From IMG/VR virus record IMGVR_UViG_2718218168_000002: a stretch of 45,859 nt of DNA; one strand, 5' to 3'. The notes below the pieces were generated by a model. It saw nothing but the letters and a program-made list of their open reading frames with translations, was not told where the DNA came from and searched no databases. This document shows, piece after piece, positions 2,591 through 14,423 of the stretch; the stretch's first letter is position 1, and each line of letters starts with the position of its first letter. The position numbers were made by a program, and so were the translations under genes. This stretch comes from a virus. Its lineage: Duplodnaviria > Heunggongvirae > Uroviricota > Caudoviricetes.

Positions 2591-3372
2591 TTAACCTCCT
2601 GCGGCGGTTCCGGTAGAGGCATCCAGTACAAGGCGTTCCCTAACCACGATAAAGTGCCGTCGCTCAACTCCACGTATTCCTCTTGTACCTGTCCTGCCAT
2701 ATACTCGCCGTGCTTTGAATAAATTAAAATCCAATCATCTTGAGCGGGCATTCGCTCACTACAGCTTATCCAACCATCCGGAGTTACCGGAGAGTTGCCA
2801 CCCTGAACAGTAGGCATATCCGGACCTTTGCGAATCGCCCTGGCAAGATCGATTGGGTCGTCGTACAACCAGTCACCTGTTTGCGGATGATTGGCCTCTG
2901 CCTGTTGCGCCGCCCACTCCAGACCGTCTTTGTGTCCTTGAAGATAGTCCAGCGGTAACTCATCACTATTACTTACAGGTTCGGCCTGAAGCATGGCGGC
3001 GCGGCAGGCGTTCCAGCCAGCTGTTCGCCCAAGCGCGTAAACTTCAGATGGCTCAAGATAATCAATGTCATGCCCGTCCTCATCGTCGTTCTCAGGTAAT
3101 GCAGCAGGTACTACCGGTACTGGCGGAGCGGCGTAGACCTCAATAATTCCATTATCAATAGGCCATTCTCCATCCTTGAGATAGTCACTTGTGCCGTCAA
3201 CTTGCTGTTCTGCAATGTGGAAAGCGCCTATTGGTTTTGCTTCCAGCGATGCCAGCGCAATCCGTGCCAGCTCTTCCGCTTCTTCTGCTGGCAGTACAAC
3301 GTTGCTACCAGGTCCGTATGTTTCGCGCCACTCCTTGATTGTCAGCAGTCGCTCTTTGGTAATAGTGGTCAT
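2587..3372 (-). CDS. Hypothetical phage early protein (possible DUF551-like C-terminus)
   Basis: 261-aa ORF in the leftward early operon; C-terminal WISCSERMP motif recalls DUF551. Weak assignment. Confidence 0.5.
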   Translation of the reverse strand: MTTITKERLLTIKEWRETYGPGSNVVLPAEEAEELARIALASLEAKPIGAFHIAEQQVDGTSDYLKDGEWPIDNGIIEVYAAPPVPVVPAALPENDDEDGHDIDYLEPSEVYALGRTAGWNACRAAMLQAEPVSNSDELPLDYLQGHKDGLEWAAQQAEANHPQTGDWLYDDPIDLARAIRKGPDMPTVQGGNSPVTPDGWISCSERMPAQDDWILIYSKHGEYMAGQVQEEYVELSDGTLSWLGNALYWMPLPEPPQEVN

Positions 3373-3375
3373 GTG

Positions 3376-3525
3376 TTAGTCCTCTGTAGCAGGTGATACG
3401 CCGTAGTTGCATTCTTCATAGAATATGTCTCTGCCTATTTCTTCGGCATCCTCTGGCGTGTCTGCTTCAAACTCAACAACCTTGCAATCATTAAATCCTT
3501 CGATAGTCACGATGTACTTAGCCAT
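3376..3525 (-). CDS. Small hypothetical protein
   Basis: Internal ATG of track ORF 3376..3606, preceded by AAGGAGAG Shine-Dalgarno; starts 2 nt after the upstream stop. Confidence 0.4.
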   Translation of the reverse strand: MAKYIVTIEGFNDCKVVEFEADTPEDAEEIGRDIFYEECNYGVSPATED

Positions 3526-8191: not shown

Positions 8192-9064
8192 TTATTTAAT
8201 TTCTTTTTCCGGTAAATACATTGTCATTTGAACAGGTTTCTTTCCATAGTGTTGAGCAACTCGACTTCTTAGCTCATGCATGGTGTCGCATGTTTTTGCG
8301 ACCCCAATAACCTCCCAGCACCTTGATACAAGCTGCCTTACACCTAGGTTCTCGGTTAACTGTCTATGCCAGTGAACTCCTGCCGCAGGCTTGTTTTCTT
8401 TAAGATATTTAGCCACATCTTCGTCAAGAGTGTCATAAATTAACTCTATAACTAATTTCCCCCACCATTTGGGCCTTGATTGCAATGGGGTACTCCATCC
8501 TGTCAATCTACCAAATTCTTCCCATAACTCATCAGGAAATGTTTTTTCCCATGCTCTTAGTTCCTCAGCGATGAACGCCCTGAGTTTTACTTGGAGAGCA
8601 TCCTCTGCGCGCTCATACTGATACCCAGTAGCCTCATCAATTAGAGCATCTAACCCAGTCCTGGTTAAACCTGCTGTTAATACAGCACATTTAATTGCTA
8701 TTTCTCGCTGTCTATCTGTCAATGGCGCGCCTTTGTATAGCGCCTGTACATAGCCGCGACAAATCAATTCAAATTGCTCAGTCTTAAGTCCTTGGCTTTT
8801 AAATTGGGTTCCTGGTATGGAAAACTCTATGAGTTCGGCCAGGACTAAGTCTTTGTCTATAAAGCCATTAAGTGAGCTAACGCCAATAAATTTAGCCAGG
8901 TCTCCTGACTCCGCATTGGCAATTGCTTTTACAGTTGCTCGCAAAGCTATAACACGATGTCCAGTGTCAAGCACATAGCAATCAATACTTTCACCACCTA
9001 AGTCGATCTTCCCCTTCCATTTTGCGAATGGGGATGGTAATTGCTGTAAATCATCATGTTCCAT
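8192..9064 (-). CDS. Uncharacterised cargo protein in the rexAB slot of the immunity operon
   Basis: 290-aa product from the internal ATG (MEHDDLQQLPSPFAKWKGK...) 32 nt after the cI stop; the full track ORF 8192..9160 would overlap cI by 65 nt. No similarity to RexA/RexB recalled. Confidence 0.6.
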   Translation of the reverse strand: MEHDDLQQLPSPFAKWKGKIDLGGESIDCYVLDTGHRVIALRATVKAIANAESGDLAKFIGVSSLNGFIDKDLVLAELIEFSIPGTQFKSQGLKTEQFELICRGYVQALYKGAPLTDRQREIAIKCAVLTAGLTRTGLDALIDEATGYQYERAEDALQVKLRAFIAEELRAWEKTFPDELWEEFGRLTGWSTPLQSRPKWWGKLVIELIYDTLDEDVAKYLKENKPAAGVHWHRQLTENLGVRQLVSRCWEVIGVAKTCDTMHELRSRVAQHYGKKPVQMTMYLPEKEIK

Positions 9065-9095
9065 TAATTGAATTACCCTTTTTTGCTGCGTTGAA

Positions 9096-9812
<717 letters not shown>

Positions 9813-9819
9813 TTAAATC

Positions 9820-9885
9820 TATCACCGCAAGGGATAAATATCTAACACCGTGCGTGTTGACTATTTTACCTCTAGCGGTGATAAT
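9820..9885. promoter_or_regulatory. oR3-oR2-oR1 operators with divergent pRM and pR
   Basis: tatcaccgcaagggata, taacaccgtgcgtgttg, tacctctagcggtgata; pR -35 TTGACT (9857-9862) and -10 GATAAT (9880-9885); AGGAGG before cro. Confidence 0.9.
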
Positions 9886-9900
9886 GATTGCATGTACTAA

Positions 9901-10110
<210 letters not shown>

Positions 10111-10117
10111 GTAACAC

Positions 10118-10161
10118 CGCTCTTTAACAGTCATGGTCCTCATTCCCGCCGAAATGCGGGA
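10118..10161 (+). promoter_or_regulatory. nutR-like site (boxA plus boxB hairpin)
   Basis: CGCTCTTTAACA (10118-10129) then hairpin TCCCGC-cgaaat-GCGGGA (10144-10161), identical in boxB to the nutL-like copy. Confidence 0.6.
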
Positions 10162-10219
10162 ATACAACGCGCATAAGTTGATGCGCATAACTTCTTATTT
10201 GTTAAGGAAATACTTACAT

Positions 10220-10516
10220 ATGGTTCGTGCAAACAAACGCAACGAGGCTCTACGAATCGAGAGTGCGTTGCTTAACAAAATCGCAATGCTTGGAACTGAG
10301 AAGACAGCGGAAGCTGTGGGAGTTGATAAGTCGCAGATCAGTAGGTGGAAGAGGGACTGGATTCCAAAGTTCTCAATGCTGCTTGCTGTTCTTGAATGGG
10401 GCGTCGTTGACGACGACATGGCTCGATTGGCACGACAAGTTGCTTCGATTCTCACCAATAAAAAACGCCCGGTGTGCAAGACCGAGCGTTCTGATCAAAT
10501 ACAAATGGAATTTTAA
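10220..10516 (+). CDS. cII: CII transcriptional activator
   Basis: Internal ATG of track ORF 10133..10516 gives MVRANKRNEALRIESALLNKIAMLGTEKTAEAVGVDKSQISRWKRDW..., recalled as lambda CII. Confidence 0.9.
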   Translation: MVRANKRNEALRIESALLNKIAMLGTEKTAEAVGVDKSQISRWKRDWIPKFSMLLAVLEWGVVDDDMARLARQVASILTNKKRPVCKTERSDQIQMEF

Positions 10517-10538
10517 CAACATCCAACGAGGTAATTAT

Positions 10539-10682
10539 ATGCGAAAAACGCAGGAAAATAAACGCGTTAATCACCGAAAAGATGTGCTACGTGACCAGTT
10601 TTATCAGGGGGTTAATCCAGCAATAGCTGTGCCACTGAGAGAAATACTTAACAGGTACAAAACTTCGGAGAAGTCAAAATGA
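10539..10682 (+). CDS. Small basic hypothetical protein upstream of the replication initiator
   Basis: 47-aa ORF MRKTQENKRVNHRKDVLRDQFYQGVNPAIAVPLREILNRYKTSEKSK with GAGG Shine-Dalgarno; its stop overlaps the next start (ATGA). Confidence 0.4.
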   Translation: MRKTQENKRVNHRKDVLRDQFYQGVNPAIAVPLREILNRYKTSEKSK

Positions 10683-11563
10683 GCATGAATCTTATGGCTA
10701 AGGCCATGAATATAAAGGTTGGCAACCCACTGAGAAAACTGGTTCTGATTAAACTTGCCGATAACGCCAATGATAATGGCGAATGCTGGCCTTCATATCA
10801 ACATGTCGCTGACCAGTGTGAGGTGAGCAGATCGACAGTAAAAAGTCACATTAGGGCACTGGAAGAGATGGGGCTTTTGAAAAGGGAATTCAGAAGAAAA
10901 GGAGAGCTTAACCAGTCAAACGTTTTTTATCTGACGCTGGATAATGCACAACAAATCCAACCAGAATCAGGTGGGGCAGGAGCTGCCCGGGGTGGGGCAG
11001 GAGCTGCCCGGGGTGGGGCAGGAGCTGCCCGGGGTGGGGCAGGAGCTGCCCGGGGTGGGGCAGGAGCTGCCCGGGGTGGGGCAGGAGCTGCCCTAGGGGG
11101 TGGGGCAGGAGCTGCCCTAGGGGGTGGGGCAGGAGCTGCCCCCAGAACCTATCACTCTTTTGAACCAGTCAATGAACCTAAAAACATTATGTTCGAACAT
11201 GTCCGAACAGAGTGTGAAAAAACTCCTGACCGTCACGAAGAAACCGACAAGGCATTCGAGGAAATATTCTGGTGTGCAGGAATGCGGAAAGCCGGGAAGA
11301 AAAACGCAGCTTCGGCATTCAGAACACAGTTCAGGGAATGGCGTAAAACTACCAGGGGTACGGCAAGCGAGTTTGCCACGATGCTGGCAGAAGACATCGC
11401 ATGCAGGAATGGTAAGCAGTTCGGATTCGACAGGTTGTTACCATCGAGCTACCTGAACGGTCAACGCTGGAACGACGAGAAGCCAGAAACTATTCAACCA
11501 CAATCCAAACCATCATCCGCAATCACCGTATCGAAAACTGGCTACGTGTTTTTCGACAGGTGA
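10679..11563 (+). CDS. Replication initiator protein (winged-helix HTH N-terminus; O-like role)
   Basis: 294-aa ORF at the lambda O position; N-terminal HTH-like segment (SYQHVADQCEVSRSTVKSHIRALEEMGLLKR); internal Gly/Ala-rich linker encoded by an iteron array. Confidence 0.55.
   Translation: MSMNLMAKAMNIKVGNPLRKLVLIKLADNANDNGECWPSYQHVADQCEVSRSTVKSHIRALEEMGLLKREFRRKGELNQSNVFYLTLDNAQQIQPESGGAGAARGGAGAARGGAGAARGGAGAARGGAGAARGGAGAALGGGAGAALGGGAGAAPRTYHSFEPVNEPKNIMFEHVRTECEKTPDRHEETDKAFEEIFWCAGMRKAGKKNAASAFRTQFREWRKTTRGTASEFATMLAEDIACRNGKQFGFDRLLPSSYLNGQRWNDEKPETIQPQSKPSSAITVSKTGYVFFDR
10970..11143 (+). repeat. Tandem 21-bp iteron array inside the initiator gene (candidate origin)
   Basis: Five exact copies of ggtggggcaggagctgcccgg, then three 24-bp variants; each unit holds inverted arms gggcag/ctgccc. 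Confidence 0.6.
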
Positions 11564-11670
11564 ACCATGAAATCAAAAATCAAATCGCTACTGGTCGCTG
11601 GTTATAACCACGGCTGGTTAAGTATTTCGTTTGTCGATTTCTGGTTTAAAAATCTCAATCTGAGGGAATC

Positions 11671-13551
11671 ATGAGGCCAAGTGAACTCAGCGACCTGCTT
11701 TGGGCGCAGGTTGACAGGGTGGCTCCGCACCTGTTGCCAAACGGCAAGAAAGAGGGGCATGAGTGGGTTGCCGGTAACGTTAACGGTGACAAGGGAAACA
11801 GCCTTAAGGTCAACCTTAGCGGCAAGAAAAAATGGGCTGATTTCGCTGAGGGAGACGGCGGTGACATGCTTGATTTGTGGATGTCATGTCGTGGAATTAA
11901 TCTGCATCAGGCTATGCAGGAAGCGAAAGCATTTCTCGGTATCAAGGATGACGATCACCATTTCGATGCCAAACGTGAGAAGAAATTCTCCAGACCTGAC
12001 CGCAAGAAAATCGCCCGCTACGTTACCAGAACAGAATCCCATCTTGAGTACCTGCAATCGCGTGGCATATCGCCAGAAATCGTAAAGCGCTACGAGGTTG
12101 TCAGCGGCAAGGTGTGGAATGGAGAGCGAGAACTGGATGCTCTGGTGCTTCCGTACAAACGCGATGGTGAGTTGTTGCAGGTAAAGCGAATCAGCACTGA
12201 GCGCCCGGGCGGGAAGAAAGTCATTATGGCAGAAGGTGATTGCGAACCTTGTCTGTTCGGATGGCAGGCTCTGGACGCTGGCGTGAGGGCGGTTGTACTT
12301 TGCGAAGGCGAAATTGATTGTATGAGCTATGCGCAATACGGCATCTCGGCGTTATCCGTACCGTTTGGTGGCGGGAAAGGCGCTAAGCAGCAGTGGATTG
12401 AGTTTGAGTATCACAACCTCGACAGGTTTGAGGAAATATTCATCTCGATGGACGTTGATGATGTTGGTCGTGAAGCCGCAAGGGAAATCGCAAGCCGACT
12501 CGGTGAACATCGTTGCCGTCTTGTTACTCTGCCGTACAAAGACATCAACGAATGCCTGATGAACGGTGTTACCGAGGATGAAATCTGGCAGTACATCGGC
12601 ACGGCATCCTACTTCGATCCTGAAGAACTCTACAGCGCGCGAGAGTTTTACCAGGACACTATCAACGCTTTCTACGGCAAGCAGCAGTATCTGTTTAATC
12701 CACCGTGGGAATCTCTGGCAGATAAATTCCAGTTCCGTGAGGCCGAGTTGACGCTGGTCAATGGTGTGAACGGTCACGGAAAAACGGAGGTTGTCGGGCA
12801 TATGGCACTTGAGGCAATGCGTCAGGGTGTGAAGACGTGCATCGCGTCACTTGAGCTGAAGCCTGGTATTCTCCTTAAGCGCCTTACCCGTCAGGCGACG
12901 TGCTGCAAGATGCCGCCAGTGCTGGAAATTGACTCTGCATTTAAATTTTATGACGAAAGACTTTGGGTGTTTGGCCTGACCGGAACGGCGAAAGCCGACA
13001 GGCTGATCGAAATATTCGACTACGCTCGCCGCCGATACGGGATCCAGTTATTCATCATCGACAGCCTGATGAAATGTGGCATAGGCGACGATGACTATAA
13101 CGGGCAGAAGGCGTTTGTTGACTCGATTTGCGACTTCAAAAACAAAACAAACTCCCACGTCATTCTCGTTACTCACTCGCGAAAAGGAGACAGCGAAGAA
13201 AAACCAACCGGGAAAATGGACGTAAAAGGCTCTGGAGCGATAACAGACCTGACAGACAACCTTTTCATCATCTGGCGTAACAAGGCTCGCGAGAGAGCGT
13301 TACAGAGAGTTCAGAGTGGTGAAAAGATGTCTGAGAAGGACGAACAGCTACTGGCATCTCCGGCATCTGTTTTGATGCTTGAAAAACAACGTAACGGAGA
13401 AGGTTGGGAAGGTGGTGTCCCGTTGTTCCTTGACGAGCAATCGCACCAGTTCCTGCAACTTGAATCAGGATCGCCATATAGCTACATCGCCAATATGCCG
13501 AAATCGGAATATGACGAGGCGTGGCGACAGGAAAACGTGACGGAGTATTAA
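11671..13551 (+). CDS. Bifunctional DNA primase/helicase (TOPRIM plus DnaB/SF4-like ATPase)
   Basis: 626-aa ORF; TOPRIM-like acidic motifs (VVLCEGEIDCMSYAQ, ISMDVDDVGREAA) and a C-terminal Walker A (NGVNGHGKTE) with a RecA-like core (FIIDSLMK); GAGGGA before the ATG. Confidence 0.7.
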   Translation: MRPSELSDLLWAQVDRVAPHLLPNGKKEGHEWVAGNVNGDKGNSLKVNLSGKKKWADFAEGDGGDMLDLWMSCRGINLHQAMQEAKAFLGIKDDDHHFDAKREKKFSRPDRKKIARYVTRTESHLEYLQSRGISPEIVKRYEVVSGKVWNGERELDALVLPYKRDGELLQVKRISTERPGGKKVIMAEGDCEPCLFGWQALDAGVRAVVLCEGEIDCMSYAQYGISALSVPFGGGKGAKQQWIEFEYHNLDRFEEIFISMDVDDVGREAAREIASRLGEHRCRLVTLPYKDINECLMNGVTEDEIWQYIGTASYFDPEELYSAREFYQDTINAFYGKQQYLFNPPWESLADKFQFREAELTLVNGVNGHGKTEVVGHMALEAMRQGVKTCIASLELKPGILLKRLTRQATCCKMPPVLEIDSAFKFYDERLWVFGLTGTAKADRLIEIFDYARRRYGIQLFIIDSLMKCGIGDDDYNGQKAFVDSICDFKNKTNSHVILVTHSRKGDSEEKPTGKMDVKGSGAITDLTDNLFIIWRNKARERALQRVQSGEKMSEKDEQLLASPASVLMLEKQRNGEGWEGGVPLFLDEQSHQFLQLESGSPYSYIANMPKSEYDEAWRQENVTEY

Positions 13552-13580
13552 ATGGCCATCTACATCACTGAGCTAATAAC

Positions 13581-13613
13581 AGGCCTGCTGGTAATCGCAG
13601 GCCTTTTTATTTG
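13581..13613 (+). terminator. Rho-independent terminator after the primase-helicase gene
   Basis: Stem aggcctgc/gcaggcct with an 8-nt loop, followed by ttttatttg. Confidence 0.6.
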
Positions 13614-13627
13614 GGGGAGAGGGAAGT

Positions 13628-13954
13628 GTGGCTGACTGGCAAATTCCAATCATCATTCTTGCCGGAGCTTCGCTGGTTGCTGGCTTTATCCTGCTGAAAA
13701 AGCATAAAGACCGTGATCAAAAAGTCGAAGTTCTCTATGGGTATCCAGCGAACAGCACAACATGGCTGACCATTTACCACTACCGAAAATCAGGCCGTTG
13801 GGTATTCGAATGGGATGATCTGTTCGCTGAAAAGCGACCAAAGTCATGGGGAGACATCAGCGAATGCATGATGTTTGAAGAAAGAAAATCCGGCGCAACC
13901 CGAGAAGAGTTTAACGAAGCGTGGAGGCGATTAAGTGAGAGGGGGTATCAATGA
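13628..13954 (+). CDS. Hypothetical protein with N-terminal transmembrane segment
   Basis: 108-aa ORF with a GTG start after GGGAGAGGG; hydrophobic N-terminus IPIIILAGASLVAGFILL. Confidence 0.4.
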   Translation: MADWQIPIIILAGASLVAGFILLKKHKDRDQKVEVLYGYPANSTTWLTIYHYRKSGRWVFEWDDLFAEKRPKSWGDISECMMFEERKSGATREEFNEAWRRLSERGYQ

Positions 13955-13976
13955 GCAGAATTAAGTCGAGGTAACA

Positions 13977-14423
13977 ATGAAGCAAATATACATGCTTCGC
14001 AACGAAGCAATCAGAAATAACGCCATAGACGCAATACTCTCACTTCCGATCGACGACAAGTCACCTCACGAAGTCCACATTAAAGAACCCAAGCGGAGCA
14101 ATCCTCAAAACCGCCTTATGTGGGCGTTATTGCAGGACGTATCACGTCAGGTGCTTTGGCATGGACAGAGACTTGCGCCGGAGGACTGGAAAGACCTGTT
14201 TACTGCCCTGTGGCTTAAGACCAAAAAACTGGAGCAACGAAGTGTGCCTGGTATCGACGGTGGCGTTGTCATGCTTGGCGTGCGTACCAGCAAAATGCGA
14301 AAGGCCAGCATGACTGAGCTTATCGAAATCATGTTTTGGTTCGGCTCAGAGCGCAACGTGCGGTGGAGTGATGACTCCCGGCGAGAGTATGAATGGTCAC
14401 AACGAAAAGGGAAGGCTGCATGA
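13977..14423 (+). CDS. ninB: NinB (Orf-family recombination protein)
   Basis: 148-aa ORF; NPQNRLMWALLQDVSRQVLWHG and the C-terminal RNVRWSDDSRREYEW match the recalled lambda NinB pattern. Confidence 0.75.
   Translation: MKQIYMLRNEAIRNNAIDAILSLPIDDKSPHEVHIKEPKRSNPQNRLMWALLQDVSRQVLWHGQRLAPEDWKDLFTALWLKTKKLEQRSVPGIDGGVVMLGVRTSKMRKASMTELIEIMFWFGSERNVRWSDDSRREYEWSQRKGKAA

Follow-up and report, generated by a model that had tools for sequence, protein, structure and literature searches.

The O protein of phage λ recognises four repeats that lie midway along its own gene (PMC8022706). Across the origins of λ and the Shiga toxin (Stx) phages, specificity differs from one phage to another, and Stx-phage variants with six iterons are found (PMC8022706, PMC7466680). 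The predicted origins of P22 and phage L are likewise short repeats inside the initiator gene, in this case gene 18, and the repeats differ with the initiator (PMC8022706). The present work concerns an array of eight repeats inside the replication initiator gene of a prophage of the Caudoviricetes, IMG/VR record IMGVR_UViG_2718218168_000002, a stretch of 45,859 nucleotides (nt) that is referred to as a whole as the window. We consider it likely that these repeats are the iterons of the replication origin of the prophage, lying within the gene for its initiator. The arrangement is most likely a λ-style origin in a non-λ initiator family.

As in the λ ori, internally symmetric repeats, here candidate sites, separate the part of the initiator gene that codes for the DNA-binding N-domain from the part for the C-domain, which in the window is presumed to bind the partner. 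The differences are several. The window's N-domain is HTH_36, whereas that of λ O is Phage_rep_O. Where λ and the Stx-phage variants have four or six imperfect repeats, the window has eight head-to-tail units with perfect cores. The λ repeats adjoin an unwinding region, and at that place the window has a conserved element of 43% GC instead of an AT-rich tract. Finally, the partner in the window is a primase-helicase, unlike λ, which uses P plus host DnaB. In phage L the repeat is an 11-bp sequence, TGTCCAACGGA, present six times, and both the initiator sequence and the repeat motif are unlike those of the window. The initiator gene of the window is laid out as a winged-helix N-domain, a repeat-encoded linker, the conserved element and a swappable C-domain, with amino acid (aa) and nucleotide positions as follows.

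10679..11563, + strand: replication initiator gene, 294 aa (Pfam HTH_36 and HTH_24; PHROGs; operon position)
10679..10969, + strand: N-terminal winged-helix DNA-binding domain, aa 1-97, as modelled (AlphaFold model, Foldseek, mutual information)
10970-11143, no strand given: candidate iteron array of eight head-to-tail units (sequence reading, Tandem Repeats Finder, homologous dyad repeats in about 150 relatives)
10974-10988, 10995-11009, 11016-11030, 11037-11051: dyad cores 1-4, 15 bp each
11058-11072, 11079-11093, 11103-11117, 11127-11141: dyad cores 5-8, 15 bp each
11142..11178, no strand given: conserved element CCAGAACCTATCACTCTTTTGAACCAGTCAATGAACC, 37 nt, 43% GC, coding for PRTYHSFEPVNEP
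11179..11563, + strand: C-terminal domain (DNA match, query 501-885, to the C-terminal halves of the Sf101, mEp043, epsilon34, g341c and ES18 'O' genes)

Tandem Repeats Finder returned a single array, with 7.9 copies of a period of 21 at 10970-11141, 98% matches and a score of 290. By direct reading, five exact 21-bp units, GGTGGGGCAGGAGCTGCCCGG, occupy 10970-11074 and are followed by two 24-bp units, GGTGGGGCAGGAGCTGCCCTAGGG, at 11075-11098 and 11099-11122, both ending in CCCTAGGG, and by a terminal 21-nt unit, GGTGGGGCAGGAGCTGCCCCC, at 11123-11143, which runs on into the 37-nt element. An earlier reading of the sequence, the original prediction, had described five exact 21-bp units and three 24-bp variants; the total of eight and the five exact units stand, and the three variants resolve into two 24-bp units plus the terminal unit. 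Each of the eight contains the 15-mer core GGGCAGGAGCTGCCC, i.e., GGGCAG-GAG-CTGCCC, in which the predicted arms, 6 bp long and inverted, flank a 3-nt spacer and give the unit internal dyad symmetry. Core-to-core spacing is 21, 21, 21, 21, 21, 24 and 24 bp. The exact 15-mer occurs eight times on the + strand of the 45.9-kb window, always within the array. With up to three mismatches allowed, 16 matches were found, these being the eight array sites on both strands, versus 0.99 expected, and none of 100 shuffles reached that count; outside the array the window has no copy of GGGCAGGAGCTGCCC even with three mismatches. No other repeat family resembling an alternative iteron set was found in 9800-14000. 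The array is in frame in the open reading frame (ORF) at 10679-11563, where aa 98-155 read GGAGAAR five times, GGAGAALG twice and GGAGAAP once, so that the array does encode, as had been proposed, a Gly/Ala-rich linker inside the initiator, between N-domain and C-domain. GC content is 71-80% over the array versus 40-53% in both flanks. A codon-shuffle test of the dyad content of the window array was highly significant; the result was discounted because the eight copies are not independent, and we relied instead on tests across the family.

Two sets of relatives were used. An IMG/VR search with the segment that follows the repeats gave at least 120 stretches and, with loci already in hand, at least 129 loci. 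The second set was collected from one genome per species with N-domain peptide patterns and is independent of the DNA segment; 80 loci were kept. The pattern is present in the at least 129 loci, the N-domains of which form 20 clusters at 85% identity, and in all 20 clusters dyad-symmetric repeats lie between the N-domain and the segment. Members of the family occur in Escherichia, Salmonella, Klebsiella, Pantoea, Pseudomonas, Aeromonas, Shewanella, Xenorhabdus and other genera. The 80-locus set, from Pantoea, Tatumella, Enterobacter, many Pseudomonas, Aeromonas, Shewanella, Xenorhabdus, Photobacterium and others, has the same layout. The repeat sequences and the peptides that they encode differ among clusters, as in the following arm types.

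GGGCAG-GAG-CTGCCC: peptide GGAGAAR
(T/G)(A/G)GTGCA-N5-T(T/G)CAC: peptide GGSAGDSP
CTGTGCC-N7-9-GGCACAG-like: peptide PPMPPDGT
GTGTAA-AAA-TTACAC: peptide PSVKITP
TAGTGAAAAATCTGCAC: peptide PSEKSAP

The 151 distinct loci have 1-9 copies, mostly 4-5 (mode 5), spaced by 21 bp (196 cases), 22 bp (41), 23 bp (32) or 24 bp (195). Copies lie in more than one reading frame in 50 of the 151; one gene, for example, reads its motif both as GAGADL and as VGQELT. Dyad density in the linker is 2.8 per 100 nt versus 0.14 and 0.08 in the flanking coding DNA, i.e., 20-36 times higher. Across 109 distinct sequences, the copy closest to the conserved segment keeps a constant register, and Watson-Crick pairing amounts to 74-99% at its five core arm pairs, with alternatives such as GC 77 and TA 31, GC 49 and TA 49, or GC 68 and CG 18. 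Over eight pair columns, 63% of pairs are complementary, versus 44%, and never above 48%, when columns are shuffled and 17-42% when the partner column is shifted along. By this comparison the dyad is maintained by compensatory change. Selection evidently acts on the DNA and not on the peptide, because the encoded peptides are wholly different and the copies sit in different frames in 50 loci.

The arms also vary with the initiator's N-domain. The N-terminus matches Pfam HTH_36 (E=6.8e-14) and also the winged-helix family HTH_24; PHROGs labels the protein 'replication initiation protein / O-like'. An AlphaFold model of aa 1-97, built on a 44-sequence alignment, is a winged helix with a mean predicted local distance difference test (pLDDT) score of 81 and a predicted template modelling score of 0.75; it has helices at 17-29, 40-47 and 51-63, the last being the predicted recognition helix, and a beta wing at 67-85. 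A prediction from the single sequence was poor (pLDDT 41) and was superseded by the alignment-based model. Mutual information between protein columns and arm sequence peaks at aa 49-64 (52, 53, 55, 56 and 59), which spans the modelled recognition helix, and comparably variable positions (11, 12, 33 and 63) hold far less. Helix and arm types are paired, RSTVK-H with GGGCA, SKRSVMNH with GTGCA/TTCAC, and SRKTAIGH with GTGTAA/TTACAC. The proposal that the protein is not λ O was upheld, given HTH_36 in the window versus Phage_rep_O in Sf101 O. Assignment of the window N-domain to the λ O family was rejected: Pfam shows no Phage_rep_O, and it is not filed there because a profile comparison with the Sf101 N-domain was not significant (hhalign probability 0.3%).

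The 37-nt element directly follows the last repeat and was outside the interval of the original prediction. GC content falls from 71-80% in the array to about 40% beyond it, and is 43% in the adjoining 37 nt. GAACC occurs at three places in the element, and relatives often have GAACCAGTC once more at the third. In the set collected by N-domain peptide only, its 26-nt core is present with at most four mismatches in 73 of 80 loci. Among identical residues, the fraction of identical codons in the 80 loci is 0.91 in the element versus 0.42 in the N-domain, and GC content at third codon positions in Pseudomonas-like loci is 0.35 in the element versus 0.75 in the N-domain. Because codon identity is so much higher, and third-position GC so low even in Pseudomonas, the element is under DNA-level constraint beyond the conserved peptide PRT(S/Y)HSFEPVNEP, and its synonymous sites are kept across the gamma-proteobacteria, from E. 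coli to Pseudomonas. We infer that it is a candidate unwinding or helicase-entry/loading site of these origins; alternatively, it might bind a conserved host factor or the invariant part of the initiator. In three genomes, those of Erwinia rhapontici, Pseudomonas bharatica and Erwinia tracheiphila (L145, L196 and L202; about 3240-3420 in each), the ORF crosses repeats and element in another frame (…PEPVTLLNQS…). These genes are probably frameshifted pseudogenes, and the DNA element is intact in all three.

Chimeric genes place the array relative to λ-type iterons. At 11179-11563 the DNA of the window matches the C-terminal halves of the Sf101, mEp043, epsilon34, g341c and ES18 'O' genes with 93-97% identity. 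The N-terminal half of the Sf101 protein is Phage_rep_O (E=1e-37), and the N-regions of epsilon34 and ES18 are 94% identical to λ gpO aa 17-148 (PMC2629481). ES18 gp59, epsilon34 gp50 and the Sf101 and mEp043 'O' proteins are like the window initiator in C-terminal half, in repeat position and in the type of primase-helicase downstream (1881-bp gene), and unlike it in having a Phage_rep_O N-domain, GTGTCAC/GGTGACA repeats and an A/T tract; the window carries a swapped-in cassette. The shared half begins at window 11179, module junctions coincide exactly with the 3' end of the element, and the element occupies the same place as the Sf101 A/T tract. Because Sf101 has λ-type GTGTCAC/GGTGACA repeats and then an A/T-rich tract immediately before the shared C-terminal part, the window's N-domain, array and 37 nt evidently replaced a λ O N-domain, λ iterons and AT tract as one cassette. 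Salmonella phage SI5 is the converse case, in which an N-domain, repeats and following segment like those of the window are joined to a different C-domain. Weak megablast matches also led to E. coli prophages with HTH_36 initiators paired with λ P (L006) or with a DnaB-like helicase (L007 and L008), which share with the window just 40-65 bp or so directly after the repeats. N-domain, repeats and element therefore travel together, with varied C-domains and with λ P, a DnaB-like helicase or a primase-helicase as partner.

The original prediction had likened the array to the λ ori iterons inside gene O, and in the Sf101/ES18-type genes λ-type iterons do occupy exactly the equivalent position. That equivalence, the dyads found throughout the family and conservation at the DNA level all support reading the array as origin iterons. 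The anatomy of the gene, the family-wide arrangement, selection at the DNA level and the positional equivalence with λ-type iterons are established by these comparisons.

A primase-helicase gene had also been named with the original prediction, and a gene with Toprim_2 and DnaB_C domains indeed lies downstream.

11671..13551, + strand: primase-helicase gene, 626 aa (Pfam Toprim_2 E=3e-12, AAA_25 and DnaB_C; PHROG 239)
11564-11670: AT-rich spacer between initiator and primase-helicase genes, 107 bp, 39-43% GC, with AAATCAA twice

The product of 11671..13551 matches PHROG 239, 'DNA primase/helicase', with E=1e-170, and is presumed to be the replicative partner that the initiator recruits, with the initiator's C-terminal domain presumed to contact it. 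The spacer contains a possible 35-codon ORF, MKSKIKSLLVAGYNHGWLSISFVDFWFKNLNLRES.

Initiator binding, unwinding, helicase recruitment and origin firing would follow the λ paradigm (PMC8022706, PMC7466680). On derepression, rightward transcription would yield the 294-aa initiator, the winged-helix N-domain of which would bind the eight 15-bp dyad cores, probably as dimers. The 21-24-bp spacing, about two helical turns, would place the dyads on one face of the DNA. A nucleoprotein complex like the λ O-some could then destabilise the adjoining lower-GC element at 11142-11178, and the C-terminal domain would recruit the primase-helicase encoded just downstream, whereupon replication would begin. 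The Gly/Ala-rich peptide would be an incidental coding product of DNA sites placed in a tolerant interdomain linker.

Several points weigh against an origin. A literature search found no published experiment on binding or origin activity for any member of this initiator family. In the window's own unit, four of six arm pairs are dictated by GGN/GCN/CGN codons; because of this the palindrome at the window locus alone is weak evidence, and the case for an origin rests on the family. The statistics on helix/arm co-variation ignore kinship, and because helix and repeats are tightly linked, shared descent inflates the mutual-information signal. Dyad symmetry with compensatory change fits single-stranded hairpins too. 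The segment adjoining the repeats is just moderately AT-rich at 43% GC, unlike the λ unwinding tract. Some relatives (L084 and SI5) have just one or two repeats, fewer than classical origins, and in EH2085 and SI5 all units read CTGACC, which breaks one arm pair.

The repeats might bind the initiator and yet serve regulation, by blocking or attenuating transcription into the helicase gene or by controlling copy number through handcuffing, with replication starting elsewhere, e.g., in the spacer at 11564-11670. Bound within the operon, the initiator would inevitably lie in the path of transcribing RNA polymerase, and the spacer, with its low GC and its two AAATCAA motifs, is conserved together with the last 20 or so initiator codons in Sf101, SI5 and phiKp_30. 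In L006, L007 and L008, however, the partner gene overlaps or abuts the initiator gene and leaves no spacer, yet repeats and element persist, and the λ-type iterons at the equivalent position in the Sf101/ES18 chimeras also argue against such a role in place of an origin. We regard this explanation as unlikely; regulatory and origin roles are compatible with each other and can coexist.

Two other explanations dispense with binding to duplex DNA. The array could be just a coding minisatellite, prone to slippage, that determines how long a flexible Gly/Ala linker is and has no function as DNA, the palindrome being a by-product of GGN and GCN codons. Several facts suit a minisatellite: the units of the window, 21 and 24 bp long, preserve the reading frame and match one another perfectly, relatives differ in copy number (1 to 9), and the amino-acid sequence accounts for four of the six arm pairs. 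In relatives, however, the dyad scheme is retained while the peptides are unrelated; spacings of 22 and 23 bp occur, and 50 loci have copies in more than one frame. Compensatory changes preserve arm complementarity, and the arms track the recognition helix. These facts make a minisatellite quite improbable. The dyads could also act as hairpins in single-stranded DNA or mRNA, either as priming or helicase-entry signals on the unwound strand or in control of initiator translation. Changes that preserve complementarity would be expected of hairpins as well, and 10960-11200, folded as a single strand, does modestly better than its shuffles (z = -2.6). Against this, the stems are merely 5-7 bp, many mismatches are non-wobble (C-T, G-G and G-A), an Rfam scan of 10400-11800 gave no match, and both the 21-24-bp spacing and the link between arms and DNA-binding helix are left unexplained. 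Because folding is just modestly above shuffles, hairpins are not needed to explain the array, and we think them highly improbable.

An iteron set within an origin thus remains the preferred reading, and there are parallels for it outside the phages. In RepA_N plasmids, iterons lie inside the rep gene, between the N-terminal DNA-binding domain and a host-specific C-domain. Plasmid iterons are direct repeats of 17-22 bp. The window is like iteron plasmids (the RepA_N RepA of pSK41 and pTZ2162; the R6K gamma origin) in having a winged-helix initiator and direct repeats, here candidate binding sites, about 22 bp apart. The spacings, 21 and 24 bp in the window and 21-24 bp in relatives, fall at that plasmid spacing of about 22 bp, and the N-domain is modelled as a winged helix. 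Foldseek gave generic winged-helix matches to the model, including plasmid RepA N-domains on iteron DNA (4pql, 4pt7 and 5kbj), weak ones with E about 2e-3, TM 0.5-0.6 and 18-20% identity. A search of PDB sequences with the initiator gave nothing relevant. The window differs from iteron plasmids in that the initiator has no Pfam Rep_3 or RepA_N match, the resemblance at fold level is weak, and the context is the early operon of a lambdoid prophage.

Closer relatives are found in Stx phages. The window gene is the 'O' gene of Stx2 phages 24B, Min27, F403 and F451, at about 98% identity. Genes of this type define the 'Eru5' replication unit, for which Stx2a_F403 is the reference phage (PMC8951638). 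The Eru2A and Eru5 'replication proteins' of Stx phages, SfV orf39 and phage cdtI belong to the same initiator family as the window protein. The commonest relative is a 273-aa Eru2A-type protein (PMC8951638, PMC8044961); Eru2A-type genes differ from the window in having five imperfect GTGCA-N5-TTCAC repeats and other partners. A comparison of copy number among related prophages had been suggested with the original prediction. When it was made, the window-type repeat was found to vary from 1 to 9 copies, as listed.

1 copy: L084, P0001
2 copies: Salmonella phage SI5; L011, L068, L116
3 copies: phage 24B
5 copies: L064
7 copies: EH2085
8 copies: window
9 copies: E. coli 07_3636

In complete E. 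coli genomes the initiator gene measures 777, 798, 819, 840, 861 or 903 bp; these lengths fit 3-9 units, and 3 units is the commonest number among the genomes sampled. Eight copies is at the high end, the norm of the wider family being 4-5 imperfect copies. The CTGACC change (C-to-A, Ala to Asp) is present in every unit of EH2085 (L002 1292-1439) and SI5 (L004 3290-3340), and L011 has both unit types mixed. Because the same change is in every EH2085 and SI5 unit, the arrays are homogenised, i.e., they undergo concerted evolution, and one arm pair can be lost. Both the perfect identity of the units and the spread from 1 to 9 copies suggest slippage or unequal exchange/recombination; perfect repeats would expand and contract in this way, which would account for the 1-9 copies among relatives. 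The records of phiKp_30 (L005 position 1), APC_JM3.2, Si3 and SF10 begin or end in or beside the array, and 171 'partial' database proteins of one cluster (P0005) stop inside it. Because genome records end at the array and partial proteins stop within it, the array seems to break short-read assemblies, and published copy numbers may be unreliable. As a variable-number repeat, the array could serve subtyping and may at the same time break short-read assemblies.

Just past the module junction lies a further repeated stretch.

11189..11209, no strand given: 10-bp direct repeat/palindromic stretch ATGTTCGAACATGTCCGAACA (ATGTTCGAAC ATGTCCGAAC)

Sf101 (L003 3003-3026) has GTCCGAAAGTGTTCGGAC at the matching position. 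In the λ ori an inverted repeat lies to the right of the AT-rich tract, and 11189-11209 is at the corresponding place. Scored on the minus strand, this stretch resembles a terminator hairpin with a T-run after it. DnaA boxes adjoin the iterons in plasmid origins. A relaxed match to such a box, TGTGAAAAA, is on the + strand at 11213-11221, 35 nt past the element, and is also found in Sf101 and phiKp_30; the window as a whole has two relaxed matches versus 4.4 by chance, i.e., DnaA boxes are not enriched.

Upstream of the initiator are cI (S24 peptidase and HTH_3), cro and cII (Phage_CII). Directly downstream of cI, at 8192-9160 on the minus strand, is a 322-aa ORF with a P63C domain, the start of which overlaps the cI ORF by 65 nt; it occupies the slot in the immunity region where lambdoid phages often have accessory or exclusion genes. 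Antisense to cII at its 3' end, a 12-bp stem with a T-run behind it occupies 10462-10492, also on the minus strand; this is the position of the λ oop RNA terminator. A promoter and terminator scan gave nothing above shuffles.

A literature search found no account of this origin, and the repeat and element sequence strings are in no searchable paper; the SfV genome paper and the Weigel & Seitz 2006 review lay outside the coverage, and an earlier description is possible. The papers that define the Eru types classify genes and make no mention of iterons or an origin (PMC8951638, PMC8044961). The logic of the λ origin is already known; what differs here is the DNA-binding family, the conserved neighbour element that is not AT-rich, the interchangeable partners and the expanded perfect array of the window.

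Stx phages of clinical importance (24B, Min27 and F403, 'Eru5') have the window's type as their replication module, and the commonest relative is the 'Eru2' module. Where these 'non-lambdoid' modules start replication is unstated in the papers that define them, and the rate of replication affects toxin gene dosage after induction. With about 20 natural pairings of helix and iteron and a fixed neighbour element, origin specificity and unwinding are accessible to simple swaps. It is possible, and we put it forward tentatively, that a large gamma-proteobacterial prophage family shares an undescribed origin design, in which the arm bases can be read from the recognition helix and an invariant 37-nt element serves for unwinding or helicase entry. 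Within that design, recognition of the element may fall to the invariant N-terminal portion of the initiator or to a conserved factor of the host, whichever helicase system is recruited. If true, the family would offer a usable protein-DNA recognition code that sets origin specificity.

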